Source of the DNA: Patescibacteria group bacterium
GTDB taxonomy: Bacteria; Patescibacteriota; Minisyncoccia; Minisyncoccales; UBA10102
Reading direction: 5' to 3'
DNA: 64,000 nt
Assembly: GCA_022563395.1 (NCBI GenBank)
Contig: JADFNM010000001.1
Coordinates: 19,891-83,890 of the forward strand
A program made the position numbers and the translations under genes. Shown one piece after another: positions 2,491-62,449 of this stretch (the stretch's first letter is position 1; every line of letters begins with the position of its first letter). Under the pieces are notes generated by a model. The model was not told the DNA's origin, searched no databases, and saw only the letters and a program-made list of their open reading frames with translations.

Positions 2491-2529
2491 GCTTAAACGA
2501 GATTTAAGAGCTCTTAAATCTCGTTTAGG
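2491..2529. repeat. palindromic element with arms in swapped order and no DnaA-box loop
   Basis: GCTTAAACGAGATTTAAGAG|CTCTTAAATCTCGTTTAGG lies between convergent genes. It uses the same 16-mer arms as the elements at 20299, 28058, 36169 and 47282. Confidence 0.85.
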
Positions 2530-5739: not shown

Positions 5740-7215
<1,476 letters not shown>

Positions 7216-7687: not shown

Positions 7688-8191
7688 ATGTTTGAATATA
7701 ATTGGAAAAACAAAGAAGCAAGCTTCGGACCGCCAGTAGCAAAAGAAGTTCCAGGCGGTACACATATTTCCATTGAAAACATTTTAACGTTCCAAGGGAA
7801 GTTCGTTGCGTTGAGACGACCAGAGGCAAACCCACAGCACGAGATACCAGAAAAAGCACAGAAAGCTAAAAAAGCGCTCCTGTATTTTGTGCATAACCTT
7901 CCACGTTGGGGCGAGACCCTGGATCAGTACGTCAACCGTGTCGTGATGGATTACGCAGGGGTAAAAGTGAGAAGCTACAAGGTTGTTGGACTCGACATAG
8001 AACTGTACGAAGACACTCAGCAGTGGGCGTGGACACCCTATACCTTTGTAGAACTTGAGTCTCTGCCTACCTCGGGAGTGTATGGCAATGAAATTACCGA
8101 GGTGGTAACGTTTAACATAAATACTATTCCAGACGAGTTTGGCTGGTGGGAGAAAGGTGAGTTGGAGCAATTTCTTCGTAAATCTCAGTAA
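7688..8191 (+). CDS. hypothetical protein
   Basis: A 167-aa ORF starting 24 nt after tRNA-Ala. No family recognised. Confidence 0.5.
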   Translation: MFEYNWKNKEASFGPPVAKEVPGGTHISIENILTFQGKFVALRRPEANPQHEIPEKAQKAKKALLYFVHNLPRWGETLDQYVNRVVMDYAGVKVRSYKVVGLDIELYEDTQQWAWTPYTFVELESLPTSGVYGNEITEVVTFNINTIPDEFGWWEKGELEQFLRKSQ

Positions 8192-8314
8192 TCTGTCTGA
8201 GTTCTGAGAGAAGTTGGTTTCCCGCCTACGCTAAAGCTACGGACGGGCAAGGCAACTGAGCCCGCAGTTTAAGACAAAGTCGAAAAATAATCTCAGTTAA
8301 GCATTTTATTTACT

Positions 8315-8620
8315 ATGCAAAGTTTCATTAACTTTATCAGAGAGCAAGGTGTAATGGGTCTGGCGATTGGTTTTATTTTAGGAGGTGCGGTATCAAAAGT
8401 TGTTGCGTCGTTCGTAGAAGACATCATTAATCCTATACTCGGGATTATATTGGGAGCCGCAGGAGCGCTTGATGCTGCAGTACTTAAAGTTGGTCCTGTT
8501 GAGATTTTGTGGGGAAGTTTTGCGGCCACGATAATTGACTTTGTAATTATAGCTCTTGTTATTTTTTACGGTTTTAAATTCTTAAAACTGGAAAAATTGG
8601 ACAAGAAGAAAGGTAGCTAG
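8315..8620 (+). CDS. mscL: large-conductance mechanosensitive channel
   Basis: FINFIREQGVMGLAIGFILGGA... with two TM helices and a KKK tail. Length and pattern match MscL. Confidence 0.85.
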   Translation: MQSFINFIREQGVMGLAIGFILGGAVSKVVASFVEDIINPILGIILGAAGALDAAVLKVGPVEILWGSFAATIIDFVIIALVIFYGFKFLKLEKLDKKKGS

Positions 8621-8739
8621 AAACAAAACAGTTGTTTTCCACAGGCAGGGTATATTGACAGCCTGTTTTTTGGTATAATATTTCAATATCTCAAAAGGTC
8701 GTTTTTTGTTGTTTTGAAACTAAATACATAATATTTAAA

Positions 8740-8946
8740 ATGGTGCAAAAAGGTACAATAAGTTTAGCTGTCGGCATCCTCTTGGTTGTTGGTGGTTTAA
8801 ACTGGGGATTGGTTGGACTTTTCAACCTGGATGTTGTTGCCACCGTCTTTGGAGGAACCGCAGCATTGGGATCTAAAGTGGTCTATGTGCTTGTGGGTCT
8901 CGCAGCTTTGTATAAGCTGGCCAAGATGGTGGGAGTAGTGAAGTAA
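8740..8946 (+). CDS. DUF378-like small membrane protein
   Basis: 68 aa with two TM helices and GGLNWGLVGLFNLDVV, which is typical of DUF378. An extended -10 TGGTATAAT lies at 8671-8679. Confidence 0.7.
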   Translation: MVQKGTISLAVGILLVVGGLNWGLVGLFNLDVVATVFGGTAALGSKVVYVLVGLAALYKLAKMVGVVK

Positions 8947-9004
8947 TTGATACTTCTTTCCGCCCCCCACCGTACGGTGGGGGATCAAAGAGGCATTTAT
9001 TCTC

Positions 9005-9433
9005 ATGCTGTACTCATTTTTTACTCTTTTAAGCCGCATTATTCCTGCAAGGGAGGTGTTTGCGCATTGCGACATTCCTTGTGGTATATACACACCACAG
9101 CCAGCTCAAACTGCGGCTAGAACCGTGGTAAAGATGGTAGAAAAGCTTCAGGAAATAAGTCCTACTGACATTCACGGGATTTCACGACTTACTGCGGTGA
9201 AAGAAGAACATGCCCAGATTGCAAAGGAGCAGCTCCTTATTTTGTGGACTGATTACTTTGCAGAGGAGCATCTCAAAGCATTTCCCGATCTCCATGAAAC
9301 CTTTTGGAAGGCAACAAAGCTTTGCAGTAAGGTAAAACAGGAGGTGAATATGCAGGCGGCGCAGGACTTGCAAAAGGCGGTAGATGAGATAGCAGAGATG
9401 TTCCAAGAGGCAGAGAGGGCAAAGAAGCAATGA
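9005..9433 (+). CDS. sodN: nickel superoxide dismutase precursor
   Basis: A 20-aa leader is followed by HCDIPCGIY (from 9065), the Ni-hook motif His-Cys-x-x-Pro-Cys-Gly-x-Tyr. The 4-helix-bundle length fits. Confidence 0.85.
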   Translation: MLYSFFTLLSRIIPAREVFAHCDIPCGIYTPQPAQTAARTVVKMVEKLQEISPTDIHGISRLTAVKEEHAQIAKEQLLILWTDYFAEEHLKAFPDLHETFWKATKLCSKVKQEVNMQAAQDLQKAVDEIAEMFQEAERAKKQ

Positions 9434-9798
9434 TTTCCTACTTCAAAGTGAGAGAACAAAGCATGGAACCCTGGGCTAGGGAAGGAGACTTTGTGGTAGT
9501 AGATAGGATGTCCTATCTTTTTTTAAAACCCAAGATAGGACATGTTGTAGTAGCAAGGCACCCCAAAAAACCTAGCATACTGCTCTTAAAACGTATTGTT
9601 AGAGAACAGAAGGATAGGTACTGGATAGAGGGAGATTGCACCTCAAAAAGCACAGATAGTAGGCATTTTGGGTGGCTCAAAAGAGATTTTTTGGTAGGAA
9701 AAGTTATCCACAAGACAAGCTCCCTTGCTTGTAGTATAATGGCACAATGCATAAATAGGCATATTAAGGTAGTGCCATTTGTGCGAGCACGCACATAA
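9430..9798 (+). CDS. sodX: S26-family signal-peptidase-like NiSOD maturation protease
   Basis: SMEP (Ser motif) and LLKRIV (Lys motif) match the S26 family. The 4-nt overlap with sodN matches the usual sodN-sodX pairing. Confidence 0.75.
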   Translation: MISYFKVREQSMEPWAREGDFVVVDRMSYLFLKPKIGHVVVARHPKKPSILLLKRIVREQKDRYWIEGDCTSKSTDSRHFGWLKRDFLVGKVIHKTSSLACSIMAQCINRHIKVVPFVRART

Positions 9799-9861
9799 TG
9801 TCATAATCCTTTAAAGGTCGGGAAAAGTACTTTGCATAACTAAAATAAACATACACACAAT

Positions 9862-10539
9862 ATGGTTCTCAATTTGTACGAGGTTACTATCACCGGCCTC
9901 CTGGATTTGTGGCAAGGATTCATTGGCTTTTTGCCGGCTTTGGTAGGAGCCTTGGTAATCTTTAGCATTGGATGGTTCATTTCAGTTGGAGTGGGCCGCT
10001 TGGTAACTGACATTTTAAAGAGAATTAAATTCAATCAGGTTTTTGAGCGGGGGAATTGGAAGCACGCCTTAGAAAAGGCGGACATGAAGGTGGATCCTGC
10101 AGGATTCATCGGCAGCATCTTCAAGTGGGTGTTAGTTATCGTATTCCTCTTGGCCGCAGTTGAGGTCCTTGGATTGAATCAGCTGGCTGTTTTCATTACG
10201 AGTGTTCTGGCATATTTGCCTAATGTTTTGGTTGCTTCGTTGATTTTCGTGGTAGCCGTGATTATCGCAGATATTGCAGGGAAAGTGTTGAGGGCAGCCG
10301 TAGAATCCACCCAGATCGGGTACGGGCATCTGGTTGGCGTGATTGTGCGATGGTCCATCTGGGTCTTTGCGATCGTGGCAATCCTGCAACAACTTGACAT
10401 CGCAGCCGGGTTTTCTCAGGATGTCGTACGCGCTATCCTCGCGTTCCTGGTCATTACCGGAGGTTTGGCCTTTGGCTTGGGAGGAAGGGAAGTAGCAACT
10501 CAGTTGCTGCAGGACCTGAACCGAAAACTGAGAGGGTAA
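9862..10539 (+). CDS. conserved TM-helix-repeat membrane protein (MscS-associated type)
   Basis: 225 aa, polytopic, with the repeated hydrophobic pattern of the TM_helix family. Confidence 0.6.
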   Translation: MVLNLYEVTITGLLDLWQGFIGFLPALVGALVIFSIGWFISVGVGRLVTDILKRIKFNQVFERGNWKHALEKADMKVDPAGFIGSIFKWVLVIVFLLAAVEVLGLNQLAVFITSVLAYLPNVLVASLIFVVAVIIADIAGKVLRAAVESTQIGYGHLVGVIVRWSIWVFAIVAILQQLDIAAGFSQDVVRAILAFLVITGGLAFGLGGREVATQLLQDLNRKLRG

Positions 10540-10561
10540 AAACTCAACTGCTTGAGTTTTT
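10538..10561 (+). terminator. hairpin with T-tract after the TM-helix gene
   Basis: AAAAACTCAA CTGC TTGAGTTTTT. Its 22-nt core is repeated verbatim at 13936-13957. Confidence 0.7.
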
Positions 10562-10577
10562 ATATCCTGAATTTGAA

Positions 10578-10607
10578 CCACCCCGCCTCCTCGGCGGGGT
10601 GGTTTTT
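10578..10607 (+). terminator. second intrinsic terminator
   Basis: CCACCCCGCC TCCTC GGCGGGGTGG followed by TTTTT. Confidence 0.8.
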
Positions 10608-10695
10608 ATTGATCTCAAGTATTTCTTGGCAAAACCAAGGAATCCTTAATTTCATTTAGGAGATATGCGGGTTTTCAAAGGAGCGGGGTCTTTTC

Positions 10696-10724
10696 TTGAC
10701 ATTCTATCTTGGCTCAGCTATACT
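10696..10724 (+). promoter_or_regulatory. consensus sigma70-type promoter for 23S-5S
   Basis: TTGACA (10696-10701), a 17-nt spacer, then TATACT (10719-10724). A boxA-like CTCTTTTAAGA follows. Confidence 0.7.
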
Positions 10725-10884
10725 CTTTTAAGACATGAGAAATACGCAAAAACATTGCAAACTACAAAGCGGCTGGCAAACCTGATGGGTTTTTGTGTCA
10801 GTTATGAAGCCGCTTTAAAAAGCGGTTTTTCGTTGCTCGTGTCAGTACGTTAATAATTGAATAATGGGTATAATCTGCTAGCAA

Positions 10885-16253: not shown

Positions 16254-16270
16254 TCACCCAAAGCAAGTAG

Positions 16271-16352
16271 TTCCTTAATTTCATTAAGGAGATAATCAAT
16301 AGAATCAATCATGCTTAAATGAGATTTAAGCAGCATGGAGAGAAAGAATCGC
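16271..16352 (+). repeat. three-hairpin intergenic cassette, copy 1 (terminator module replaced)
   Basis: TTCCTTAATTTCATTAAGGAGATAATCAATAGAATCA...CATGCTTAAATGAGATTTAAGCAGCATGGAGAGAAAGAATCGC aligns with the copies at 39012, 40705 and 44318. Confidence 0.85.
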
Positions 16353-16387
16353 AGAGCTAAGCTCAGCTTTGCATGCGGAGCCTGGTA

Positions 16388-16416
16388 TTGACATTCTAGA
16401 CTCCATATGGTAGTAT
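16388..16416 (+). promoter_or_regulatory. promoter of csp (TTGACA-17-TAGTAT)
   Basis: A consensus -35 and a good -10. It leaves a 5' UTR of about 95 nt, as is usual for cold-shock genes. Confidence 0.65.
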
Positions 16417-17106: not shown

Positions 17107-17203
17107 GTTCTTTTATTATACTTTACAATGGCTTGCAAAGTAAAGAGTCTGTTTTGCACAGAACAGGTTCTAACATCGTCTTGTAGGAGGGAACCGTTTA
17201 CTG

Positions 17204-17259
17204 CCTAAGCGAGACTTAGGAAGTATGGCTAAAGAGAATCGCCAAGAAGGCGGTTTTTT
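17204..17259 (+). repeat. partial cassette (palindrome plus terminator module)
   Basis: CCTAAGCGAGACTTAGG...GAGAATCGCCAAGAAGGCGGTTTTTT. The terminator module is also present at 16790-16817. Confidence 0.7.
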
Positions 17260-17273
17260 GGTAATATATATGC

Positions 17274-18017
17274 ATGGATCCATTTTTTCTTACGCTGCTT
17301 GCAACCTTTGGCATTGCTGCGCTTGCGCTTTCAGGGAGTTTTCTCTTGTTTGTAAAGGACCATTTCTTAAAGCGTATTTCGTTGTATCTTCTTGCTATGG
17401 CAGCCGGTGCCTTGCTGGGAACCGCATTCTTGCATATTCTTCCCGAAGTAGTAGATAAGGGAGTTCCGGAGCAGGGATTCTTGATTCTGCTTGGCGGATT
17501 TCTCTTTTTCTACATTGGTGAAAAGCTTCTCCATTTGCACCATGGGCCCCAAGGAGCAGACGAGCACAGTCCTCGTGTTCTGGGTGTGCTGAGCCTTTCG
17601 GCTGATGCCGTGCACAACTTTGTTGACGGTATTATCTTGGCCGTGGCCTTTTTGGTGGATGTAAGGCTTGGCATGGTGACGGCAGCTGCCGTTGCTCTGC
17701 ATGAGATACCCCAAGAGATAGCCGAATTCGGGGTGCTCTTGTATGCCGGGTTCTCAAAGCGGCGGGCTCTATTCTTAAACTTTCTTTCTGCAACAACCGT
17801 TATCCTTGGAGGAGTTGTGGGATTTTTATTCCAAGAAACTTTCATCTCCTTTATTCCTTTTGTGCTGCTGTTTGCGGCAGGAAGCTTTTTATACATTGGA
17901 GCTTCAGACTTTGTGCCGGAGTTTAAGAAAGAGCGCAATCCAAAGAGAGCTCTTGCTCTTTCTTTCACCTTCTTTTCTGGAATCTTTTTAATGTGGATAT
18001 TTACCTTTGTGGAGTAA
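17274..18017 (+). CDS. zupT: ZIP-family divalent metal transporter (ZupT-like)
   Basis: HNFVDGIILA and ALHEIPQEIAEFGVL motifs. TAATAT at 17263-17268 lies 5 nt before the ATG, which is leaderless geometry. Confidence 0.88.
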   Translation: MDPFFLTLLATFGIAALALSGSFLLFVKDHFLKRISLYLLAMAAGALLGTAFLHILPEVVDKGVPEQGFLILLGGFLFFYIGEKLLHLHHGPQGADEHSPRVLGVLSLSADAVHNFVDGIILAVAFLVDVRLGMVTAAAVALHEIPQEIAEFGVLLYAGFSKRRALFLNFLSATTVILGGVVGFLFQETFISFIPFVLLFAAGSFLYIGASDFVPEFKKERNPKRALALSFTFFSGIFLMWIFTFVE

Positions 18018-19540: not shown

Positions 19541-20302
19541 ATGAACCAAAGGAGATTTTTCAAGGAAGCAAGATGGTTGCTTCAAGAAAAGTATCAAAGC
19601 AAACTTACAAAAGCTGCAAAAAAAGATATTGCACGACTCAAAGCAGGGGAGCCGGTGGATTACCTTATTGGATTTGTAGAGTTTGCGGATTGCCGCATTG
19701 ATCTTTCCTTAAAACCTCTCATTCCTCGCCCGGAAACAGAGCATTGGACCCAAAAAGCCATACAAGATATCCGCATGTCTCCTAAACGAAATTTAAGCAC
19801 TCACTGTTTAGATGTATTTTCCGGATCAGGATGTATTGGCATTGCAGTTTTAAAGCACATTCCCCATGTTTGTGTTGACTTTGCAGAAAACGAGAAAAAG
19901 TTTTTACAGCAAATTCATCTTAATCTTAAAAAGAACAGAATTTCAAAGAAGCGCTTTCGAGTATTTCAGTCAAATATCTTTTCTGAAGTATCTTTGCGGT
20001 ATGACTACATTTTTGCCAACCCACCATATGTCGCAAAATCAAAGAAACATAGTGTACATGCATCAGTTCTTAGGCACGAACCTCGTGAAGCTTTGTTTGC
20101 GGGGAAAGATGGGCTTTTGTACATCAGAAGGTTTTTGAAAGAAGCAAAAACACATCTCAAACCAAAGGGATCAATATACCTGGAGTTTGACTCTCCTCAG
20201 AAAAAAGAGATAGACAAACTTCTCCAGCGGTTTGACTATAGTTCTTGGCAATTCCATAAAGACCAATACGGGAAATGGCGTTTTGTCGTTGTGGAAAACT
20301 AA
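19541..20302 (+). CDS. prmC: release-factor glutamine N5-methyltransferase
   Basis: FANPPY (NPPY motif), VFSGSGCIGIA (SAM motif) and EPREAL. Confidence 0.85.
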   Translation: MNQRRFFKEARWLLQEKYQSKLTKAAKKDIARLKAGEPVDYLIGFVEFADCRIDLSLKPLIPRPETEHWTQKAIQDIRMSPKRNLSTHCLDVFSGSGCIGIAVLKHIPHVCVDFAENEKKFLQQIHLNLKKNRISKKRFRVFQSNIFSEVSLRYDYIFANPPYVAKSKKHSVHASVLRHEPREALFAGKDGLLYIRRFLKEAKTHLKPKGSIYLEFDSPQKKEIDKLLQRFDYSSWQFHKDQYGKWRFVVVEN

Positions 20303-20345
20303 ATCTCGTTTAGTTATCCACACCTAAACGAGATTTAAGCAGACG
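20299..20345 (-). repeat. DnaA-box-loop palindromic element (inverted orientation)
   Basis: CTAAATCTCGTTTAG TTATCCACAC CTAAACGAGATTTAAGCAGAC has a 14-bp perfect stem. TTATCCACA lies at 20314-20322. Confidence 0.9.
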
Positions 20346-20972
20346 AAGTTGTTCTAAAGAAATACTATCTTTGATTGTGAAATCTCCGACACGGGTGCGT
20401 TCAAGCTCGGTGAGATAGGCGCCGGTGCCCAATGTTTCTCCAATGTCTTTTGCTAAAGAGCGGATATATGTGCCGGCGGAACATACAACTCGAATCTTGA
20501 GCGAGGGCGGAGAATATTTGAGCACCCCAATCTCGTGAATCTGCACTTTCCGACTGGGGAGCACCACATTCACGCCTCTTCTTGCAAGCTTGTACGCGGG
20601 AACCCCTTTTACCTTTATCGCAGAATAGGGCGGGGGAGTCTGCTTTATCTCTCCCACAAATGACCTTAGCGTATCCTTAATCTCGCTTAAGTGTGGATAA
20701 CTTAGTGAGACCAAGGATATTTGGCCTTCGGGGTCGCCTGTAGTGCTGGTTTTGCCAAGTTCTAGGGTAGCAACATATTCTTTTTTGGTGTTTTTGGTGA
20801 TTTCAGTGAGTTTTTTGGTATCCTCTCTTCCCACGGCAACAACAAGAACACCTGTTGCAAAGGGGTCTAAGGTACCTGCATGCCCTACCCGCCTTTCTCC
20901 TGTTTGTCTTCTGACTTCATCCACCACGTCGTGGGAGGTTATGCCTTTTGGCTTGTTGATGTTGAGTACCAT
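20310..20972 (-). CDS. truB: tRNA pseudouridine-55 synthase
   Basis: GHAGTLDPFATGVLVVAVG (the catalytic Asp motif). Confidence 0.92.
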   Translation of the reverse strand: MVLNINKPKGITSHDVVDEVRRQTGERRVGHAGTLDPFATGVLVVAVGREDTKKLTEITKNTKKEYVATLELGKTSTTGDPEGQISLVSLSYPHLSEIKDTLRSFVGEIKQTPPPYSAIKVKGVPAYKLARRGVNVVLPSRKVQIHEIGVLKYSPPSLKIRVVCSAGTYIRSLAKDIGETLGTGAYLTELERTRVGDFTIKDSISLEQLRLLKSRLGVDN

Positions 20973-21007
20973 TAAGGGTAAACTTAACTAAACTAAGTTT
21001 AGCAGAA

Positions 21008-26486: not shown

Positions 26487-26533
26487 CTTAATGAAATTAA
26501 GGAATCCTTAGTCTAGCTAAGGAGAAAGAAACT

Positions 26534-27175: not shown

Positions 27176-28057
27176 ATGAAAGAATACTCTATTAAGGATC
27201 TTAAAAAGAAGGCAAACCAGATACGCCAAGACATCATTAAACTCTTGGTTCAGGCCGGATCTGGGCATTCAGCAGGTCCTTTAGGTATGGCAGACATTTT
27301 TACTGCCCTGTATTTTCGCGTTTTAAAGCACAACCCAAAGAACCCAAGATGGAAAGACCGGGACCGCCTCATTCTTTCTAACGGGCATATTTGTCCGGTG
27401 AGATACACTGCCATGGCTCATGCAGGGTATTTCCCGAAGAGTTGGCTTAAAACCTTTCGTAAAATCAACTCAAAGCTGGAAGGACATCCGTCTTTCAAGA
27501 AACTTCCTGCAGTGGAGACTTCTTCTGGCCCCCTGGGTGAAGGGTTGTCGCAGGCCTGCGGGTTTGCCCTGGCTGCCAAGATGGACAACGCAAGCTACCA
27601 CGTGTGGTGTTTGATGTCAGATGGCGAACACCAAGAAGGCATGACCTGGGAGGCAGCAATGCTGGCCTCCAAGTATCGTTTAAACAACCTCACGGTGGTG
27701 GTGGACAGAAACAACATTCAGATTGACGGCGTGACAGAAGATATCATGCCTTTGGAACCCTTCAGGGCAAAGTATGAAGCGTTTGGCTGGCATGTGATAG
27801 ACATGAACGCGCATGATATGAGAGAAATCATTTCTACTTTAGAGGAGGCAAAGGCAATCCAAGAAAAACCCGTGTGCATTATTGCTCATACCATTCCCGG
27901 TAAGGGAGTTTCTTTCATGGAAAAAGACTATAAATGGCACGGGGTCCCGCCGGGAACTGCGATTGCAGGAGAGCCAGAAAAGGAAAAGCAAGTAAAGATT
28001 GCCCTGAGAGAACTTCGTACCCTAAGGGAAAAGATTGAAGCTGCCGACATTGACTAG
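27176..28057 (+). CDS. tkt: transketolase, N-terminal subunit
   Basis: GSGHSAGPLGMADI, SNGH and GPLGEGLS motifs. This is the split form. Confidence 0.9.
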   Translation: MKEYSIKDLKKKANQIRQDIIKLLVQAGSGHSAGPLGMADIFTALYFRVLKHNPKNPRWKDRDRLILSNGHICPVRYTAMAHAGYFPKSWLKTFRKINSKLEGHPSFKKLPAVETSSGPLGEGLSQACGFALAAKMDNASYHVWCLMSDGEHQEGMTWEAAMLASKYRLNNLTVVVDRNNIQIDGVTEDIMPLEPFRAKYEAFGWHVIDMNAHDMREIISTLEEAKAIQEKPVCIIAHTIPGKGVSFMEKDYKWHGVPPGTAIAGEPEKEKQVKIALRELRTLREKIEAADID

Positions 28058-28105
28058 CTGCTTAAATCTCGTTTAGGTGTGGATAACTAAACGAGATTTA
28101 GGCAA
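28058..28105 (+). repeat. DnaA-box-loop palindromic element
   Basis: CTGCTTAAATCTCGTTTAG GTGTGGATAA CTAAACGAGATTTAGGCAA. TGTGGATAA lies at 28078-28086. It starts 1 nt after the tkt-N stop. Confidence 0.9.
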
Positions 28106-28110
28106 ACAAA

Positions 28111-29079
28111 ATGAATTGGTATTTTGCAAAAAACTACTTGGACGAAAAAAAGGTAAAGCAGGAACCCATGCGAAATGGGGCAGGGAAAGGATTGGCTGAA
28201 TTGGGAGAGAAATACAAAGATGTTGTGGTGCTTGCGGCCGATACTGCAGGTTCTTCAAGGGCCAATTACTTTGCAGAAAAGTTTCCCAAAAGGTTTATTC
28301 AGGTTGGGGTTGCGGAACAAAACCTTATTGGCGTTGCAACAGGATTGGCATACCAGGGAAAGGTGCCGTATGCAGTAACCTATGCTGCGTTCTTAATTGG
28401 AAGGGCATGGGAACCCATACGCACTACGGTAGCGTATCCTGAAAATCACGTGGTATTTGTTTCATCTCACGCAGGTCTGGCTACGGGACCTGACGGCCCC
28501 ACGCACCAGATGACAGAAGATATTGCTCTTACAAGATGCCTTCCCGGCTTTACCGTGATAGCTCCTTGTGATGCAGAGCAGGCAAAAAAAGCAGTGTTTG
28601 CCTCATATTCTTTGAAGGGTCCTGTGTATATTAGAAACTGCAGGGAAAAGACCCCGGTGCTTACAACAAACAAGACTCCATTTGAGGTTGGCAGGGCACA
28701 GGTGCTGCGCGAGGGAACCGATGCAACAGTGATTGGTCATGGATACATGGTGTACTGGCTCTTACAGATTGCAGAGGAACTCAAGAGGAAAATTTCTCTT
28801 GAGGTTATCAATCTTCACACCATAAAGCCGTTAGATGAGAAAACCATAGTGCAGTCAGCAAAGAAAACAGGGAAAGTATTTTGCGCAGAAGATCATAACG
28901 TGATAGGAGGCATGGGTTCTGCAGTTGCTGAGCTGTTGGCAGAAAAACTCCCGGTTTCTGTGTTTCGCCATGGGGTGTATGATACATTCGCAGAATCTGG
29001 TTCTGTAGGAGATTTGTGGAAGAAATATGGTCTGGACAAGGAAGGAACAAAAAAAGCATTACTCAAGTTTTTGAAATGA
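28111..29079 (+). CDS. tkt: transketolase, C-terminal subunit
   Basis: FIQVGVAEQNLIGVATGLA...HAGLATGPDGPTHQ. Confidence 0.9.
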   Translation: MNWYFAKNYLDEKKVKQEPMRNGAGKGLAELGEKYKDVVVLAADTAGSSRANYFAEKFPKRFIQVGVAEQNLIGVATGLAYQGKVPYAVTYAAFLIGRAWEPIRTTVAYPENHVVFVSSHAGLATGPDGPTHQMTEDIALTRCLPGFTVIAPCDAEQAKKAVFASYSLKGPVYIRNCREKTPVLTTNKTPFEVGRAQVLREGTDATVIGHGYMVYWLLQIAEELKRKISLEVINLHTIKPLDEKTIVQSAKKTGKVFCAEDHNVIGGMGSAVAELLAEKLPVSVFRHGVYDTFAESGSVGDLWKKYGLDKEGTKKALLKFLK

Positions 29080-35842: not shown

Positions 35843-36177
35843 TGGAGAAGTTAACTGAGAAAAAATGCGTGCCGTGTGAAGGAGGAACTCCTCCTTTGAA
35901 CGAGGAAGAAATCCAAGCATACGCAGGTCAGCTTCAGGGTGAATGGGAGGCTATAGATGAGAAAAAAATACAAAAGCAGTTTTCTTTCAAGAACTTTAAA
36001 GAGGCCTTGGCGTTTGTAAACAAGGTAGGCGAGATTGCAGAATCTGAAGGGCACCACCCTGATATTCGCCTGTTTGGATACAAGAATGTGGAAATTGAGC
36101 TTTCTACGCATGCCATTGGCGGTCTCTCCGAGAATGACTTTATTGTAGCCGCAAAAATAGAGCAGCTTTCTGCTTAA
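35842..36177 (+). CDS. phhB: pterin-4-alpha-carbinolamine dehydratase
   Basis: F.F.NF..A..F.N.V...AE..GHHPD motif. Confidence 0.85.
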   Translation: MEKLTEKKCVPCEGGTPPLNEEEIQAYAGQLQGEWEAIDEKKIQKQFSFKNFKEALAFVNKVGEIAESEGHHPDIRLFGYKNVEIELSTHAIGGLSENDFIVAAKIEQLSA

Positions 36178-36218
36178 ATCTCGTTTAGGTGTGGATAACT
36201 AAACGAGATTTAAGCAGA
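36169..36218 (+). repeat. DnaA-box-loop palindromic element (20-bp perfect stem)
   Basis: TCTGCTTAAATCTCGTTTAG GTGTGGATAA CTAAACGAGATTTAAGCAGA. The PCD stop codon TAA (36175-36177) lies inside the left arm. Confidence 0.92.
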
Positions 36219-38232: not shown

Positions 38233-39009
38233 ATGTCTCAGTTCTATTCCGGAAAACGAAGTAGAAACTTGTATGAACCCTCAACAAAGGAGTCTTTTCG
38301 TTTAAGCCGCTCCAAGATCGAAAACTTTTTGAAGTGTCCCCGCTGCTTTTATCTTGACCGGCGCCTTGGCGTGGACCAGCCGCCTGGGTATCCATTTAGC
38401 CTCAATGCTGCCGTAGACACCTTGCTCAAAAAGGAGTTTAATCTTTTGAGAACAAAGCGAGAACCCCATCCTTTATTTAAAGAATACGGCATTGACGCTG
38501 TTCCTTTTCAGCACCCAAAAATGGATGAATGGAGAGAAACCCTAAAAGGCCTTCAGTATTACCATGAGCCCTCAGGATTTTTAGTGACCGGCGCGGTAGA
38601 CGACATTTGGCAGAACTCAGAGGGAGAATTACACGTAGTGGATTATAAGGCAACGGCAAAGAATGGGGAGGTGAACTTGGATGCTGACTGGCAGCGCTCC
38701 TACAAAAACCAAATGGAAATCTACCAGTGGCTCCTGCGTCATCAACCAGACGGGTTCAAGGTTTCTCCTTTGGGATATTTTGTGTATGTGAACGGTAAGA
38801 TGAACCGGGAAGCGTTTGACGCTCGCCTTGAGTTTGACATGAAGATTATTCTCTATAAAGGAGATGATTCCTGGATAGAAAAGGCCTTGATGGATGCAAA
38901 GAAAGTGCTGGATTCAGACAAGCTGCCGCAAGCAAACGAGGGGTGCGATTATTGTTTGTACCGAAAGTCGGTGCAGGACGTTTTGCAGCCCTTTCAGAAA
39001 AGCGAATAG
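38233..39009 (+). CDS. PD-(D/E)XK nuclease, Cas4/RecB-like, with CxxC...CxxC
   Basis: CPRCFY at the N-terminus, GAVDDI...VVDYKAT...QMEIYQWL (D...D/ExK...QxxxY) and CDYC at the C-terminus. Confidence 0.7.
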   Translation: MSQFYSGKRSRNLYEPSTKESFRLSRSKIENFLKCPRCFYLDRRLGVDQPPGYPFSLNAAVDTLLKKEFNLLRTKREPHPLFKEYGIDAVPFQHPKMDEWRETLKGLQYYHEPSGFLVTGAVDDIWQNSEGELHVVDYKATAKNGEVNLDADWQRSYKNQMEIYQWLLRHQPDGFKVSPLGYFVYVNGKMNREAFDARLEFDMKIILYKGDDSWIEKALMDAKKVLDSDKLPQANEGCDYCLYRKSVQDVLQPFQKSE

Positions 39010-39011
39010 TT

Positions 39012-39130
39012 CCTTAACGAAATTAAGGATTCCTTAGTTTAGTTAAGAGACAACCAAGAGAACCATTCGTGCTTAAATGAGATTTAAGCAGGAATGCAGA
39101 ATAAAGAGTCGCCAAACAGGCGATTCTTTG
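39012..39130 (+). repeat. three-hairpin intergenic cassette, copy 2 (diverged)
   Basis: CCTTAACGAAATTAAGG ... GCTTAAATGAGATTTAAGC ... GAGTCGCCAAACAGGCGATTCTTTG. Confidence 0.8.
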
Positions 39131-39148
39131 TTAAACTATGCAGGAGAT

Positions 39149-39994
39149 ATGAAACAGGTGAGTTATAGTCAGTTAATGACGTATGTGAGATGTCCTGAGC
39201 ACTGGCTGTTCCGTTACAAGCTGGGCTTAAAGCGCTCTCCCAAAAAGATTTTAAAACACGGTTTTGCCTTACATGAGACCTTTGCCTATCACTTTGACCA
39301 AAAAAAGAAAGATGGGAAAGGACTAAATGTTGGGGATGCAAAGGAGTTTTTTGCAGATGTTTTTCTGGAAGCATTAGATGACTATAAGCAAGAACTGGAG
39401 TCTGTGCGTCCCCATCTAACAAGGGAATATCTGAAAAAAGAACGAGAGGTTGATGTGACAAATTTGCTTGATCTTGGCATGCGGGGCATTGAGGTCTACT
39501 ACAAAAAACTTAATCAATATATTAAACCTGACTTAGTGGAAGAGGCATTTGAGTTCCCAGCTAGCAGGGAACTCAAGGTTATAGGAAGAATTGACCTTAC
39601 CGACAAGAGCAGTGTTATTCATGAGTTAAAAACCACCAGAAAATCACCCAATATGCAGGATATTCGTTCTGACCCCCAGCTTGCGATCTATCAGTTGGGA
39701 TACCATAGCATCAAAAAGAAATATCCAAAGGCCATTAGCAAAGACTACATTGTGCTTTCAAAGAGAGATTCTAGGATTGTACGATTTAAGGTTGCTCGTC
39801 CCTTTGTAAATCGCTTAACGATTCTTAGAAACATTAACACCATTATGGATGCGGCCCGCCACAACATCTTTTACTGCATGCATCCAGCAGAAAGTTGGTT
39901 ATGCTCTAAAGAATGGTGCGGGTACTATACTTTGCACCAGGAATTGAAAAAACTGGGATTACAAAAGTTTATGGCAAAGTATTTAAAGAAATGA
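39149..39994 (+). CDS. PD-(D/E)XK nuclease, Cas4/RecB-like (1+3 Cys pattern)
   Basis: RCPEHW at the N-terminus, GRIDLT...IHELKTT...QLAIYQLGY and the CMHPAESWLCSKEWCGYY C-terminus. The start is taken at MKQVSYS. Confidence 0.7.
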   Translation: MKQVSYSQLMTYVRCPEHWLFRYKLGLKRSPKKILKHGFALHETFAYHFDQKKKDGKGLNVGDAKEFFADVFLEALDDYKQELESVRPHLTREYLKKEREVDVTNLLDLGMRGIEVYYKKLNQYIKPDLVEEAFEFPASRELKVIGRIDLTDKSSVIHELKTTRKSPNMQDIRSDPQLAIYQLGYHSIKKKYPKAISKDYIVLSKRDSRIVRFKVARPFVNRLTILRNINTIMDAARHNIFYCMHPAESWLCSKEWCGYYTLHQELKKLGLQKFMAKYLKK

Positions 39995-40710
39995 TGGCAT
40001 CATATACCATAATACATCTTGGGGGGTCGGTGGTGGTCCCCCATATTTCAGATACAGGAGGCATCAATATTACCTATCTTAAAAAGCTGCGAACCTTTCT
40101 TTTGCCTCAGTTAAAAAAGGGCAGAAAGTTTATCATTGTCATTGGAGGTGGAAAGACCGCACGAGTGTATCAAAAGTCAGCAGAAAAGATTGTGAACATC
40201 CATGAATATGATTTGGACTGGATTGGCATTCATGCCACCCGTCTCAACGCGCATCTCTTGCGTACCATTTTTGAAAAAGAAGCATATCCCGTGGTTATTG
40301 ATCACGACCCCACGCGAGAGGAAGTAGAAATGCTAAAAAGTTCAAACAGGAATCTATTTTTTGCTTCAGGCTGGAAACCCGGATGGTCTACTGACTATGT
40401 TGCAGTGGAACTTGCAAGAAAGTTTGGCGCAAAGGAGATAATCATTGCAAAGGACACCCCATATGTGTATGACTCAGATCCCAAGAAGAACAAAAACGCA
40501 AAACCACTCAAGAAAATATCCTGGAAATTGTATAAGCAGATTATCCCACAAAAATGGACCCCCGGTCTCTCTGCCCCAGTTGATCCTGTAGCAACCAAAC
40601 TGGCAGAAAAGTTGGGACTTGAGGCAAAGATTCTCAAAGGGACCGATTTGAAGAATATGAAGAAGGCTGTAGAAGGAAAGCAATTTCGCGGCACCCTTAT
40701 TCATCCTTAA
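39991..40710 (+). CDS. pyrH: UMP kinase, archaeal type
   Basis: IIHLGGSVV...VIGGGKTAR...GWKPGWSTDYVA...DPKKN..A looks collinear, from memory, with archaeal PyrH. ATGA overlap with the upstream gene. Confidence 0.75.
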   Translation: MMASYTIIHLGGSVVVPHISDTGGINITYLKKLRTFLLPQLKKGRKFIIVIGGGKTARVYQKSAEKIVNIHEYDLDWIGIHATRLNAHLLRTIFEKEAYPVVIDHDPTREEVEMLKSSNRNLFFASGWKPGWSTDYVAVELARKFGAKEIIIAKDTPYVYDSDPKKNKNAKPLKKISWKLYKQIIPQKWTPGLSAPVDPVATKLAEKLGLEAKILKGTDLKNMKKAVEGKQFRGTLIHP

Positions 40711-40802
40711 TGAAATTAAGGAGATAATTGATAGAATCAGCCATTCTTAAATAAGATTTAAGCAGCATGGAGAGAAAGAATCGCCACAAAGGCGATTTTT
40801 TG
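40705..40802 (+). repeat. three-hairpin intergenic cassette, copy 3 (complete)
   Basis: CCTTAATGAAATTAAGGAGATAATTGATAGAATCAGCCATTCTTAAATAAGATTTAAGCAGCATGGAGAGAAAGAATCGCCACAAAGGCGATTTTTTGG. The pyrH stop TAA lies inside hairpin 1. Confidence 0.9.
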
Positions 40803-40835
40803 GTAAAATAGATTCATAAGTAGTATTCATGTAGT

Positions 40836-44308: not shown

Positions 44309-44317
44309 CCAATAGTG

Positions 44318-44413: not shown

Positions 44414-44427
44414 GATAGAGTTGGAGT

Positions 44428-46538: not shown

Positions 46539-47288
46539 ATGAAAGTAACAGCTCTAAAGACAAAAAAGATTACCCCAAAGGATACCGATATCTTGGAGAT
46601 TCTTGACAGGTATCTTCTGCGCTTAAAAGACAGGAGTGTGGTTGCTGTCACCTCAAAGATTGTAGCTATTTGTGAAGGAAGGGTGGTGCCAGAAAAATCA
46701 GGAGGCAAGGACAAACTTATCATCAGGGAAGCAGAGTATTACCTTCCCCGTACTTCTAGCAGGTATAACATTATGCTCACGGTGAAGGGAAACGCTATCA
46801 ATTTCTCTTCTGGCATAGATGAGTCCAATACCGGGGGGTACTTTGTCTTGTGGCCCAAAGATCCCCAAAAGTCTGCAAATACAATTCGGGAATACCTTAT
46901 TAAAAAACACAAGAAAAAGAACATTGGTGTTGTTATTTGTGACACCGCTTCCGTGCCCTTGCGTTGGGGGCAGCGAGGAGTGTTTGTCTTGGCGCACAGT
47001 GGGTTTGCCGCTTTAAACTCCTACATTGGAAAACTGGATATCTTTGGCAGACCCTTGAAGATGACGTCTGCTGCAGTAGCCGATGCTTTGGGAGCCGCTG
47101 CCGTGTTGGTGATGGGAGAGGGAGCAGAGCAGACTCCTTTGGTTGTTATTGAAGATGTTCCTTTTGTAAAGTTTAAACAGAGAAACCCGACCAAAAAAGA
47201 GCTTGAGAAGTTACAAATGCCGTTGGAAGATGACCTTTATGCCCCGTTATTGAAAGCAGTAAAATGGCGCAAAGGGGGTTCTGCCTAA
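46539..47288 (+). CDS. CofE-like gamma-glutamyl ligase family protein
   Basis: ...VVAVTSKIVAICEGRVV... and ...GIDESN...ICDT... fit the F420-0:gamma-glutamyl ligase fold family. TGATATAAT (46522-46530) lies 8 nt before this ATG. An alternative ATG is at 46533. Confidence 0.65.
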   Translation: MKVTALKTKKITPKDTDILEILDRYLLRLKDRSVVAVTSKIVAICEGRVVPEKSGGKDKLIIREAEYYLPRTSSRYNIMLTVKGNAINFSSGIDESNTGGYFVLWPKDPQKSANTIREYLIKKHKKKNIGVVICDTASVPLRWGQRGVFVLAHSGFAALNSYIGKLDIFGRPLKMTSAAVADALGAAAVLVMGEGAEQTPLVVIEDVPFVKFKQRNPTKKELEKLQMPLEDDLYAPLLKAVKWRKGGSA

Positions 47289-47327
47289 ATCTCGTTTAGG
47301 TGTGGATAACTAAACGAGATTTAGGCA
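47282..47327 (+). repeat. DnaA-box-loop palindromic element (18-bp perfect stem)
   Basis: TGCCTAAATCTCGTTTAG GTGTGGATAA CTAAACGAGATTTAGGCA. The upstream gene's stop TAA (47286-47288) lies in the arm. Confidence 0.92.
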
Positions 47328-47362
47328 AAATCGCTTATTCCTTAAAAGAGATTAACTTTCAG

Positions 47363-49744: not shown

Positions 49745-51274
49745 ATGGCAAGAGATCACGTTTTTGAAATTTTGCAAAAGGAACTGGAAGGAAAATCTTT
49801 GAGCCCTCAAAAAGAGGAGATTGGAAGAGTTGTATCTGTGGGGGACGGCGTGGTTTTAATTGAAGGGCTTCCCAATGTTATGTTTTCTGAAATGGTAGAA
49901 ATTACGAGGTGGCCCCAGGAGGAGAACCAAAAGAGTATTCCGGCTTTGGTTTTGAGCTTAGAAGAATATACTCTTGGAGCCGTGATACTTGGAGAGGACA
50001 AAGATATTCAAGAAGGGGATTTGGTGAAGAGAACTGAAAAAGTTCTTTCCGTACCCGTAGGAGAGGCTTTGCTGGGAAGAGTGGTAAATCCCTTGGGCAA
50101 GCCCATTGACGGGAAAGGAAGCATTGCTACAGAAAAACAGCTTCCCATTGAGAGACCGGCCCCTGCGGTGCTAGACAGGCAGGCCGTGAACACATCTTTG
50201 GCTACCGGCATTAAGGTGGTGGATGCTGCCATTCCCATTGGAAGAGGCCAAAGAGAACTGATTATCGGAGACAGGCAAATAGGGAAGACCGCTTTGATTC
50301 AAGATACCATTTTGAATCAATTAAACGAACCAGAGGAAACAAGACCCATTTGTATTTACGTTGCCATTGGGCAAAGGGCTTCAAAGGTAGCGCAGTTGGT
50401 AGGTGAGTTAGAAAAGAGGGGGGCAATGGAGTACACCATTGTGGTTGCGGCAACCGCTTCAGACCCTGCTTCTTTGTGGTATGTTGCCCCGTATGCCGGA
50501 TGCAGCATGGGAGAGTATTTTCGCGACAAAGGTAAGGATGTTCTAATAATCTATGACGATCTTTCAAAGCATGCTTGGGCATGGCGTCAAATTGCATTGC
50601 TGTTGCGCCGGCCTCCGGGAAGAGAAGCATACCCTGGTGATGTTTTCTATCTTCATTCAAGACTTTTGGAAAGAGCAGCATGTTTGTCTGAAGAAAAGGG
50701 TGGAGGTTCTTTGACTGCGCTTCCCATTGTTGAAACTCAGCTGGGGGACGTTTCCTCATATATTCCAACCAACATCATTTCCATTACCGATGGGCAAATC
50801 TATCTTGAAACCGATTTGTTTGCAAAGGGACAGAGGCCTGCGGTAAATATTGGTTTATCCGTGTCTCGTGTAGGCTCTGCTGCACAGGCAAAAGCAATGA
50901 AAAAGGTGGCTTCTCAGTTAAAGCTGGATTTGGCGCAGTATCAAGAGTTGGCTGCGTTTGTGCAGTTCGCCCAGGATTTGGATGAGACAACAAGAAAGAG
51001 AATTGATAGGGGAGCACGGCTCGTTGAGACATTAAAGCAAGGGCAGTTTGAAGTTTTGCCCATGGAAGAACAGGTATGCTTGCTGTTTGCAGTAAACAAA
51101 GGGTACTTTGATGAGGTTGCAGTGGAAAATGTGCGCGTGGGCGAGAAAAGGCTCTTGGAGCACTTGCGAAACAATGAGACAGGATTGCTGCAGACGATCC
51201 GAGACAGTAAGGATCTGGACAATGAAACCCAAGGGGCACTACAAACAGTATTAGGAGAATTCAAGATATCCTAA
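49745..51274 (+). CDS. atpA: F0F1 ATP synthase subunit alpha
   Basis: GDRQIGKT Walker A, with strong family-wide similarity throughout. Confidence 0.97.
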
Positions 51275-51290
51275 ACGAGATTTAAGCAAT
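51270..51290 (+). repeat. half-site CCTAAACGAGATTTAAGCAAT directly before the atpG ATG
   Basis: Identical to the right arm of the DnaA-box element. The atpA stop TAA (51272-51274) lies inside it. Confidence 0.85.
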
Positions 51291-52218: not shown

Positions 52219-53879
<1,661 letters not shown>

Positions 53880-56445: not shown

Positions 56446-56480
56446 CTTAGCGAGACCAAGGAATCCTTGGTCTCGCTAAG
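56446..56480. repeat. 16-bp-arm perfect palindrome
   Basis: CTTAGCGAGACCAAGG AAT CCTTGGTCTCGCTAAG. The arm is 15/16 identical to 20701-20716 inside truB and related to CCTAAGCGAGACTTAGG at 17204. Confidence 0.85.
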
Positions 56481-62426: not shown

Positions 62427-62449
62427 ATTTCATTTAAGACACATTGATT

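Follow-up and report, generated by a model that had tools for sequence, protein, structure and literature searches.

Why do several genes at unrelated loci end inside one and the same palindromic repeat, and why does one of them, truB, carry a further copy of it in frame? The question is raised by the convergent genes prmC and truB in the tiny 671-kb genome of a member of the Patescibacteria (candidate-phyla-radiation bacteria), of which we analysed one stretch of 64 kb, here called the window. The answer we favour, with confidence a little better than even, is that a Patescibacteria-specific doublet repeat has a DnaA box as its spacer, that open reading frames run into it, and that it is a putative DnaA site at the DNA level.

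Architecture and distribution of the repeat

A full copy consists of two inverted 15-nt mini-palindromes bracketing GTGTGGATAA, which contains a perfect DnaA box. The mini-palindromes have the form CTAAR-N5-YTTAG, often lengthened to TCTGCC...GGCAGA, and the 10-nt spacer has the consensus [G/C/T]TGTGGATAA, which equals the DnaA box. Four identical doublets (20300-20337, and from 28063, 36175 and 47286) are joined in the 64 kb by one doublet in reversed arrangement, two perfect singlets and some 15 mini-palindromes that have diverged (Table 1). At the first of these, 20300-20313 and 20324-20337 form a perfect 14-nt inverted repeat about the 10-nt centre, and the outer arm TCTGCTT runs on to about 20344 on the truB side. 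The reversed doublet sits between a convergent SLT-domain gene and release-factor gene, and box-less doublets with a 3-4-nt, GAAT-type spacer lie at 26487, 39011, 53940 and 56446. Non-coding sequence makes up roughly 8% of the window, and nearly all repeat units fall within it; the mini-palindrome also stands alone inside operons. The in-frame arm within prmC is conserved in L021 and is present in L022 with its centre flipped. These short repeated palindromes, found both as singlets and as inverted long-hairpin doublets, have the layout of REP, REPIN and BIME repeats, and covariation backs the long hairpin of the doublet.

Table 1. Repeat units, DnaA boxes and donated gene ends in the window (bit scores from covariance model R1).
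Feature	Position	Strand	Context and reading
Full copy	20300..20337	.	Between convergent prmC (+) and truB (-); arms TAAATCTCGTTTAG / CTAAACGAGATTTA, centre TTATCCACAC; 65.4 bits
Full copy	28063..28100	+	Between split transketolase halves tktN and tktC; 61.2 bits
Full copy	36169..36218	+	20-nt perfect arms, at PCD 3' end; 67.3 bits
Full copy	47279..47330	+	At 3' end of CofE-like (F420_ligase family) gene; 70 bits
Reversed doublet of same arms	2493..2528	.	Around AGAGCTC, without DnaA box; 29.4 bits
Single arm CCTAAACGAGATTTAAG	51270..51286	+	Between atpA and atpG; contains atpA stop
Single arm	52220..52236	+	Between atpG and atpD
In-frame single arm CCTAAACGAAATTTAAG	19781..19797	+	Inside prmC; encodes S-P-K-R-N-L-S
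Tight doublet palindrome	56446..56480	.	Without box; 24 bits
In-frame copy inside truB	20676..20716	.	Box 20692-20700 (-); encodes S-L-V-S-L-S-Y-P-H-L-S-E-I-K-D
Perfect DnaA box TTATCCACA	20314..20322	+	truB sense strand reads GTG GAT AAc, V-D-N
Second, relaxed DnaA box TTTTCCACA	20290..20298	-	Fits TTWTNCACA; last 4 prmC codons GTT GTG GAA AAC, V-V-E-N
prmC stop TAA	20300-20302	+	In left arm; ORF 19541..20302
truB last 10 codons (LLKSRLGVDN) and stop TAA	20310..20342	-	All repeat sequence; stop at 20310-20312
PCD tail S-A and stop	36175-36177 (stop)	+	TCT GCT TAA; in left arm
CofE-like tail S-A and stop	47286-47288 (stop)	+	TCT GCC TAA; in left arm
atpA stop TAA	51272-51274	+	In single arm; fifth donated stop

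The exact box TTATCCACA occurs six times in the window against 0.33 in shuffles (none of 100 shuffles reached six), and relaxed boxes (TTWTNCACA) number 15 against 6.7 expected. The 9-mer has the sequence of a DnaA box, and DnaA is assumed as its putative binder solely because that 9-mer equals the universal consensus; no DnaA gene is among the genes of the window. A box held within a long hairpin or cruciform would be single-stranded, a form that DnaA domain IV does not bind. Additionally, the box is optional at a given site, since a box doublet at the rpiB-rpe junction of L012 corresponds to a box-less one in the window. At the position of the relaxed box that ends prmC, the orthologue L020 has a perfect box, encoding A-V-D-N-stop.

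Perfect boxes away from the origin are also known from datA and DARS of E. coli, the B. subtilis clusters and the asnC roadblock, and the truB/prmC site, with three boxes within 410 bp, resembles them in being a local cluster. Known non-origin DnaA sites come as a few clusters per genome and have no flanking palindromes, whereas here single boxes, putatively bound, are framed by inverted mini-palindromes and the full copies recur every 8-11 kb. A replication origin at truB was rejected, as GC skew stays positive from end to end of the window and the genes to either side are on the + strand. A DNA uptake sequence was rejected as well, because copies are too sparse for one (about 1 per 10 kb) and their motif is that of the DnaA consensus. 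As a separate observation, L010 has a cluster of similar 9-mers upstream of mraZ that could be a MraZ operator instead of DnaA sites or oriC.

Arms and box behave differently across genomes. Within one genome the arms are identical, while those of different genomes differ even where the sites are orthologous; the box is constant. Among loci fetched by protein only, the box changed in 0/27 cases and the arms in 23/75 (Fisher p = 0.00035), and these are the only unbiased loci, because the collection scans fixed the box and box invariance there is circular. Elements occupy the same junctions at just 73-86% TruB identity (truB/prmC, within truB and at the CofE-like 3' end), each with arms of the genome's own type, and they are flanked by housekeeping genes that keep their synteny (FAD oxidase-truB-prmC, tktN-tktC, the atp operon). 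At least 20 further Patescibacteria loci show the same architecture with other arms. Their mini-hairpins are 97% paired, and in the three central arm columns, which locus selection does not force, 63 of the 72 cells form pairs, with as many as four or five types of pair in one column.

DNA site, RNA structure or mobile element

We propose that the element would work at the DNA level, as a putative DnaA-binding site framed by hairpin-capable arms, and that it may be a dispersed DnaA-titration or regulatory site, by analogy with the IHF site inside BIME-1. Several features point to DNA: transcription crosses the element in either direction (about 12 sense to 8 antisense), there are hardly any G-U pairs, copies are internal to operons whose genes are surely transcribed together (tktN-tktC, atpA-G-D, rpiB-rpe), and elsewhere the genome has ordinary hairpins that are GC-rich and have a T run behind them.

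The mixed orientation and the scarcity of G-U pairs also weigh against punctuation at the RNA level, an alternative that we consider unlikely. In it, the hairpin, and perhaps even single arms, would be a 3'-exonuclease barrier, a processing site or a translational-coupling structure that tunes operons, with a loop that is either recognised by an RNA-binding factor or incidental. Full copies are very stable as RNA (-16 to -30 kcal/mol, z -5.6 to -10; between prmC and truB, -16 to -18 kcal/mol, z -5.6 to -7.0). Among co-transcribed genes, copies and single arms are located between one gene's stop codon and the start of its neighbour, with stops in the left arm, and many elements finish 2-10 nt short of the next ATG. 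TTT follows 14 of the 32 elements in GTGTGGATAA orientation, an A run precedes some, and REP elements are known to influence mRNA stability (PMC3184786). However, single arms are unstable (-0.6 kcal/mol, no better than shuffles), a terminating or cleaving hairpin inside truB or between tktN and tktC would be costly, and the exact DnaA consensus conserved in the loop is left unexplained. No Rfam family reached its gathering score anywhere in the window, and none came up even at E <= 1 in 20200-20800.

With intrinsic terminators, paired Neisseria DUS and Correia elements, the repeat shares an inverted repeat directly 3' of open reading frames, sometimes between convergent genes, and with terminators a T run after some copies; Correia elements also have an IHF site (PMC3184786). 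It differs from terminators in its AT-rich stem, its 10-nt loop and the lack of a T run in three of the four window copies. TTTT adjoins the copy at 20300-20337 on the truB-sense side only. A canonical intrinsic terminator was rejected, given a silent terminator scan, the composition of the stem, the operon-internal tkt and atp copies and the GC-rich terminators found elsewhere. Sequestration of a Shine-Dalgarno sequence by the right half (TAAGGAG) is doubtful, the 16S 3' end having no CCTCC, and by eye the loop shows no convincing complementarity to the 16S 3' tail.

Somewhat less probable again is a selfish, non-autonomous element of REPIN or MITE type, in which a master sequence would be copied into gene ends by a transposase whose gene lies somewhere else in the 671 kb. 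As a spacer, the DnaA box would then either hitch-hike or belong to the site of the transposase, and the overlaps with reading frames would be functionless insertion scars. This would fit the four copies identical over 38 nt and the perfect single arms at unrelated loci of one genome, the different master sequence in related genomes, and the coexistence of singlets and doublets, as in REP and REPIN (PMC3337134, PMC3116915); REPINs can also be inherited vertically for long periods (10.1101/2022.05.22.493013). Against it, no target-site duplication flanks the four copies, orthologous sites hold variants of the element and not clean empty sites, as would be seen with a MITE, and no RAYT (Y1 transposase) or other transposase domain was found among the approximately 70 open reading frames of the window, which covers 64 of the 671 kb. 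Also against it are the junctions that stay occupied at the TruB divergence given above, the box that is constant while arms diverge, and the truB-internal copy kept by compensatory changes.

The closest known systems are REPIN and BIME-1 (RIP, RIB) of Enterobacteria and Pseudomonas, which likewise occur as singlets and doublets at gene ends and in operon interiors, are almost uniform inside one genome yet differ from genome to genome, persist vertically, and in BIME-1 carry a DNA-binding protein site in the spacer, there for IHF (PMC3337134, PMC3116915, PMC3184786). Unlike them, the repeat described here has AT-rich units of 15-17 nt with ends CTAA/TTAG in place of a GTAG start, a spacer that is a DnaA box and not an IHF site, copies that overlap coding sequence and supply stops, and a host among the Patescibacteria. 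Nor is the repeat strictly extragenic, as expected of REP: truB, prmC, PCD, the CofE-like gene and atpA all have ends that fall in copies of it, and it lies in frame in truB and prmC. Between the outer arms GCCTAAAC ... GTTTAGGC and the R''/R' cores of an integron attC (RYYYAAC ... GTTRRRY) there is no more than a superficial likeness, and the neighbours are syntenic housekeeping genes, so this identity too was rejected. Under the DnaA-site reading that we prefer, a REPIN-type copy-and-paste or gene-conversion process may keep the arms uniform. In so compact a genome, genes run into the element and end there.

Gene ends within the repeat

Stop donation needs no special mechanism, because the arms end in CTAA and TTAG, which together supply a stop in each of the six frames, and an open reading frame that abuts the element terminates within 9 codons. 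The original prediction held that the repeat is read as the C-terminus of TruB and supplies stops to prmC, truB, PCD and the CofE-like gene. The coordinates of the reading frames bear this out and add atpA as a fifth; the transketolase-N stop (28055-28057) falls just outside its copy. The box itself is read as V-D-N from GTG GAT AAC TAA, as had been proposed. The TruB tail is 100% identical to the intergenic copies, and the final 2 to 10 residues of the truB, prmC, PCD and CofE-like products are element sequence.

Read across orthologues, the C-terminal tails are not conserved, and each follows the local repeat variant. TruB ends in LLKSRLGVDN, LPTSHLGVDN or LPKLSLAVDN where a box doublet is present and in ...KLRIP* or ...RLSKL* where there is a mini-palindrome only, with ...LSML* as a further tail. 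PrmC ends variously in VVEN, AVDN, VLSP, IIT or VIHT. PCD orthologues keep a conserved core to ...AAKIEQL, followed by 0-3 variable residues, and CofE-like orthologues one to ...KWRKGG, followed by 1-5; at the CofE-like site, the orthologous sequence of L053 has one palindrome and that of L054 lacks any. Orthologues in which the full repeat is missing thus have other C-terminal residues, an outcome that does not refute the original proposal, and we conclude that the tails are read-through into the element and that the element was not born from a gene end. In the AlphaFold2 model of TruB the tail has a pLDDT of about 51, with residues 217-220 below 50, so its end is predicted to be disordered. 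Being unconserved, variant-following and, in TruB, disordered by prediction, the translated tails are by-products and not features conserved in the protein.

The in-frame copy within truB and its meaning

The second half of the puzzle is the segment at 20676-20716, which had been suggested to be a degenerate in-frame relative of the repeat with the same 9-mer. It matches the 40-nt consensus at 29/40 positions, compared with 23/40 for the best of about 128,000 other window positions, and covariance model R1, built mostly from other genomes, scores it at 29.3 bits (E ~5e-5). It folds at -20 kcal/mol (z -6.2). The box has the opposite orientation to that of the 3' copy and is read in another frame, as S-Y-P-H-L and not G-V-D-N. 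At least 8 of 9 orthologues have an in-frame mini-palindrome, TTATCC[A/C]CA and a mini-palindrome, with compensatory changes in the stems. Total stem length in the orthologues is 100 bp, against 54.8 +/- 3.7 under synonymous resampling, which never reached it in 5000 trials. The site is an old in-frame copy whose flanking hairpins have been kept by compensatory substitutions in related species. Mimicry of a TruB substrate (a T-arm-like hairpin) is unlikely, the loops being 3-6 nt, without UUC.

A likeness to Rickettsia palindromic elements had been pointed out, and it holds for the in-frame aspect: a palindromic repeat lies in frame in a housekeeping gene (truB, and as a singlet in prmC) and is translated, and other copies extend gene 3' ends, as with in-frame RPE, BRE, RUP and BOX repeats. 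Fusion of repeats in frame to genes is a general phenomenon (reviewed in PMC3184786, section 15). The Rickettsia palindromic elements differ in other respects. They are insertions of 100-150 bp that lengthen the protein, whereas the truB unit, of about 40 nt, stands in place of an equivalent segment: in alignment TruB is no longer here than its distant homologues, in agreement with the original prediction. The segment is predicted to be well ordered (strand, loop and helix start; pLDDT 80-95 in the AlphaFold2 model) and shows compensatory upkeep across species. The class of peptide-adding insertions was therefore rejected for it.

Could truB itself be the source, its internal or 3'-end sequence having been copied outwards? 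We judge this very improbable. The internal copy is the most widely conserved instance found, with a box or one-mismatch box in 9 of the 10 sequences compared (nine orthologues and the window itself), and truB has two or three boxes within 410 bp. However, its arms differ from the dispersed master sequence (matching it at 11/15 and 8/15 positions), which is genome-specific; the right arm lies nearer the 56446 family, its 15/16 identity to 56446-56461 having been noted beforehand and holding up. The same architecture also occurs at unrelated genes in many other Patescibacteria. Sequence flows into truB and not out of it, because the 3' tails vary according to the arm type of each genome. More improbable still is that the internal and C-terminal matches arose by chance or convergence from codons the protein needs: S-Y-P-H-L is conserved as protein in the clade, and given the protein the mean match climbs to 22.7-23.4/40 with an exact box in 6-7% of synonymous shuffles, but 29/40 is reached in only 0.4-1.3% of 20,000 such shuffles (p ~0.004-0.013), and the stems of the orthologues, the covariance score and the identity of the tail to intergenic copies also speak against it. 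At the nucleotide level, the palindromes are retained further than the amino-acid sequence requires.

A full-text literature search for a DnaA-box repeat in Patescibacteria found no description of one. We tentatively suggest a wider reading, that Parcubacteria-type Patescibacteria may share a conserved class of cis-elements. These would be dispersed, putative DnaA titration or regulatory sites, kept at fixed junctions and in the truB frame by compensatory evolution, with arms that co-evolve per genome, and would double as normal gene ends through six-frame closure.

These findings have implications for annotation, as the short C-terminal tails on many Patescibacteria proteins (...GVDN, ...VIHT, ...SA) are repeat sequence and not protein features. 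For genome evolution, truB offers a clear case of a nucleic-acid element retained within a conserved enzyme gene through compensatory substitutions across species, and the repeat an example of a universal stop cassette where intergenic space is almost nil. For the study of replication control in candidate-phyla-radiation bacteria, this conserved, dispersed and recognisable module offers concrete candidate DnaA sites.

Anatomy of the repeat and gene ends within it

The window belongs to a Patescibacteria (candidate phyla radiation) genome, and its TruB shares 100% identity with an NCBI 'Patescibacteria group bacterium' protein. At the truB/prmC junction, nucleotides 20300-20313 and 20324-20337 form a perfect 14-nt inverted repeat, TAAATCTCGTTTAG / CTAAACGAGATTTA, around the 10-nt centre TTATCCACAC. 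Each arm is itself near-palindromic (CTAAA-TCTCG-TTTAG), with outward extension to TCTGCY...RGCAGA common, and six exact occurrences of the DnaA-box 9-mer TTATCCACA were counted in the window, where 0.33 are expected. The original prediction, that prmC stops in the left arm and that the TruB C-terminus is read out of the repeat, agrees with the ORF coordinates and, for truB, with the codon reading: its 3' end (CTG CTT AAA TCT CGT TTA GGT GTG GAT AAC TAA) runs through the right arm and the centre into the beginning of the left arm. The PCD and CofE-like ORFs also end as predicted, at 36175-36177 and 47286-47288, on the TAA of TCTGCTTAA / TCTGCCTAA in two further copies.

Genes, arms and DnaA-box sites in the window
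Feature	Position	Strand	Remarks
Nickel superoxide dismutase	9005-9433		between 16S-tRNA block and 23S rRNA
S26-type peptidase of nickel superoxide dismutase	9430-9798
Protein with mechanosensitive-channel TM-helix domain	9862-10539
prmC	19541-20302	+	MTS domain, NPPY motif; stop TAA 20300-20302 in left arm
truB	20310-20972	-	TruB_N + TruB_C_2; C-terminus ...LLKSRLGVDN-TAA
Reversed doublet of arm	2493-2528
In-frame arm within prmC	19781-19797		peptide S-P-K-R-N-L-S
Lone arm	51270-51286		between atpA and atpG; source of atpA stop
Lone arm	52220-52236		between atpG and atpD
Exact 9-mer sites (4 of 6)	20300, 28063, 36175, 47286		centres of identical copies; positions are those of the copies
Exact 9-mer site	20692-20700		inside truB
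Exact 9-mer site	9704		followed by small hairpin 9715-9732

The 40-nt core carries stops in all frames of both strands, at positions 2, 13 and 27, so an ORF running into the element terminates immediately or reads a further 4 or 8 codons first (with 8, ...KSRLGVDN-stop or ...KSRLVIHT-stop). The repeat closes all six reading frames; this closure alone suffices to explain the donation of stops, and the overlap of ORF ends with the repeat is passive. Full copies fold as hairpins at -16 to -30 kcal/mol (z -5.6 to -10), and a stable fold was not found for a single arm. Mini-palindromes of the CTTAA, CTAAA or CTTAG type number about 20 in the window, nearly all within the approximately 8% that is non-coding; several of them make up tight doublets with a 3-4-nt spacer, at 26487, 39011, 53940 and 56446.

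Several neighbouring features were also recorded. Mini-palindromes lie between genes of the co-transcribed operons atpA-atpG-atpD (the two lone arms), rpiB-rpe (26487-26523), zwf-gnd (60785-60805) and pgl-glk (62416-62438), and often the left half holds the stop of the upstream gene while the following gene starts 2-10 nt past the right half. Many of the mini-palindromes between genes close with TAAGGAG a few nucleotides ahead of a start codon, despite the 16S rRNA 3' end (7195-7215, GGATCACATCATTT) carrying CATCA in place of the canonical anti-Shine-Dalgarno CCTCC. Some 3.2 kb of protein genes (7688-10853) separate the 16S-tRNA block from the 23S rRNA. The split transketolase (27176-29079) has separate N-terminal and C-terminal genes, and a DnaA-box doublet occupies nearly all of the 53 nt separating them. 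Where truB and the FAD-linked oxidase gene diverge, a conserved palindrome, TAAACTTA-N7-TAAGTTTA (20979-21001), fills the 35-nt spacer; it is also present in two loci from other genomes (L020 2906-2928; L022 2975-2991) and is near-identical to the palindrome of the zwf-gnd gap. Additionally, an intergenic module of about 100 nt occurs five times (16255-16400, 17140-17275, 39005-39150, 40700-40840, 44312-44430); it comprises a CCTTAAT...ATTAAGG mini-palindrome, a conserved linker, TGCTTAAATGAGATTTAAGCA, and a canonical GC-rich hairpin with a T run. A small RNA gene and a composite repeat are both candidate identities for it.

Variable C-terminal tails and the copy inside truB

Nine orthologous truB loci were fetched by protein identity, and eight keep the order FAD-oxidase <- truB -> <- prmC (L026 has a different downstream neighbour). 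The truB 3' end is a full doublet in the window (tail LLKSRLGVDN), a doublet with diverged arms in L024 (LPTSHLGVDN), and in L020 a doublet (LPKLSLAVDN) with arms like those elsewhere in that genome (L006, L018), where a second, inverted box makes the PrmC tail ...AVDN-stop. L029 has the box just downstream of truB, and its PrmC tail ...VIHT-stop comes from the opposite-strand reading of the box. L021 has one mini-palindrome, CCTTAATTTCGTTAAGG, with both stops within it, and L022 and L028 have a mini-palindrome in the truB/prmC overlap (TruB tail ...KL-stop).

Conserved cores followed by variable tails were found in all four proteins. Conservation among 32 TruB sequences ends at ...IEDSIPLxKL; PrmC tails past the conserved ...KWRFV read VVEN, AVDN, VLSP, IIT or VIHT; PCD orthologues end in ...AAKIEQL plus 0-3 variable residues (SA in the window); and CofE-like orthologues end in ...KWRKGG plus 1-5 residues, with GGSA-stop recurring in roughly 10 of 58. 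The corresponding CofE-like site holds one palindrome in L053, TCTGCCTAAACCGAGTTTAGGCAG, and none in L054. The AlphaFold2 model of TruB has a pLDDT of 88.9 overall, about 51 over the last ten residues and below 50 at residues 217-220. The translated tails are therefore read-through into a pre-existing element; they are not conserved protein, and the repeat did not originate from them. The possibility that a gene end was the source of the repeat, raised in the original prediction, fails on the differing C-terminal residues of the orthologues.

The proposed in-frame relative of the repeat inside truB (20676-20716) is real, as judged from its consensus score, synonymous controls, covariance match and fold. 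Ungapped, 20676-20715 scores 29 against the 40-nt consensus, versus at most 23 at other non-copy positions on both strands. With the TruB protein fixed and synonymous codons resampled or permuted, only 89 and 262 of 20,000 trials reached 29 or more, so the similarity withstands the shuffled controls. R1, a covariance model built from 23 elements of other genomes and one window copy, matches the site at 29.3 bits (E about 5e-5), and the site folds at -20 kcal/mol (z -6.2).

At least eight of nine orthologues carry, in frame, a mini-palindrome - TTATCC[A/C]CAC - mini-palindrome at this site (peptide N-L-x-x-L-S-Y-P-H-L-x-x-x-K-D). The stems vary by species (CTTAGC/GCTAAG, CTTGAC/GTCAAG, CTTGC/GCAAG, CTTAC/GTAAG, CTTAAC/GTTAAG, CTTGGTC/GACCAAG), and this difference in sequence implies compensatory change. 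Perfect stems total 100 bp, versus 54.8 +/- 3.7 under synonymous resampling, and none of 5,000 resamplings reached 100, although the sequences are related and this is not a strict probability. We regard this comparison of sequences as decisive. The old in-frame truB copy is preserved at the nucleotide level, as is the prmC singlet. The internal copy and the 3' copy (20300-20337) point in opposite directions and are read in different frames. In the protein model the internal segment covers the end of a strand, the loop of residues 88-94 and the first part of helix 95-104 (pLDDT 80-95). It adds no length to TruB relative to more distant homologues, in line with the by-eye comparison with E. coli TruB in the original prediction.

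Other palindromes were seen in the same genes. Just 5' of the internal box, L021 and L024 carry an extra in-frame GC-rich double palindrome (CCGAC-N6-GTCGG ACC CCGAC-N7-GTCGG; peptide P-x-L-R-S-D-P-D-x-L-R-R), which makes two distinct palindromic insertions in this TruB loop. In prmC of L021 the in-frame arm is kept and is immediately preceded by an extra in-frame palindrome, CCTGCCTGCGCAGGCAGG, perfect over 18 nt and GC-rich; in L022 the arm centre is flipped from CGAAA to TTTCG, which suggests hairpin-mediated loop inversion.

Distribution, constant box and changing arms

An 18-mer scan of species-representative genomes gave 19 matches, about 12 with palindromic arms of other sequence in the layout of the window; all 12 lie in Patescibacteria-type assemblies, whose labels include one archaeon and one Saccharibacteria. 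A structured-pattern search added 23 metagenome loci with more arm variants, some as arrays of box, palindrome, box, palindrome. Across 24 distinct elements the mini-hairpins are 97% paired and G-U pairs are nearly absent. In the three central arm columns, which the choice of loci did not force, 63 of 72 cells pair, and a single column shows as many as four or five pair types. In other genomes, too, ORFs terminate at arm position +3 or extend to ...GVDN-stop at +28, examples being the ROK kinase of L005 and the DegT aminotransferase of L018.

Among truB 3' junctions, chosen by protein and not by box, 0 of 27 box positions changed versus 23 of 75 arm positions (Fisher's exact test, p = 0.00035). 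Protein constraint does not explain this constancy, because residues around V-D-N vary in the tails. Arms are identical across window copies, share one type in another assembly (L006, L018, L020) and differ between genomes, orthologous sites included, which is concerted evolution within each genome. A given site can nevertheless do without the box: at the rpiB-rpe junction L012 carries a box doublet and the window a box-less tight doublet, and the CofE-like junction holds a doublet in the window versus a singlet in L053.

Two box clusters were noted separately. Three DnaA boxes, two perfect and one relaxed-consensus, lie within 410 bp at 20290-20700 (truB/prmC junction and truB interior), partly kept in L020, L024 and L029. 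L010 480-800 holds at least six DnaA-box-like 9-mers (TTATCCACA, TTATCCCCA, TTTTCCACA and others) spaced 10-20 nt, plus one palindromic doublet, all within the 270-bp spacer that precedes mraZ; the cluster may be origin-like or serve as an MraZ operator. The window itself is ruled out as a replication origin, because GC skew is positive throughout.

Nature and possible role of the repeat

The mini-palindromes and doublets make up a REPIN/BIME-like family. Already known are repeats that lengthen the 3' ends of genes or lie in frame within them (RPE, BRE, RUP, BOX; PMC3184786), and also spacer-containing REPIN doublets (PMC3337134, PMC3116915). To judge from the searchable literature, what is new is the Patescibacteria host, a constant DnaA-box spacer between arms that turn over, the systematic stop-cassette property, and an intragenic copy preserved by compensatory changes.

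A purely selfish REPIN-like element is one alternative to a functional site; there is no transposase among the window genes, and target-site duplications were not seen at the repeat copies. An RNA-level stabiliser or coupling hairpin is disfavoured relative to action on DNA, because element orientation to flanking genes is mixed, pairing is purely Watson-Crick, copies lie within the tkt, atp and pentose-phosphate operons, and ordinary GC-rich hairpins with a T run are present elsewhere in the genome. We infer that the 10-nt-spacer doublet is a putative DnaA-binding site framed by hairpin-capable arms. By analogy with BIME-1, which carries an IHF site (PMC3184786), this doublet may work at the DNA level, in titration or in regulation.
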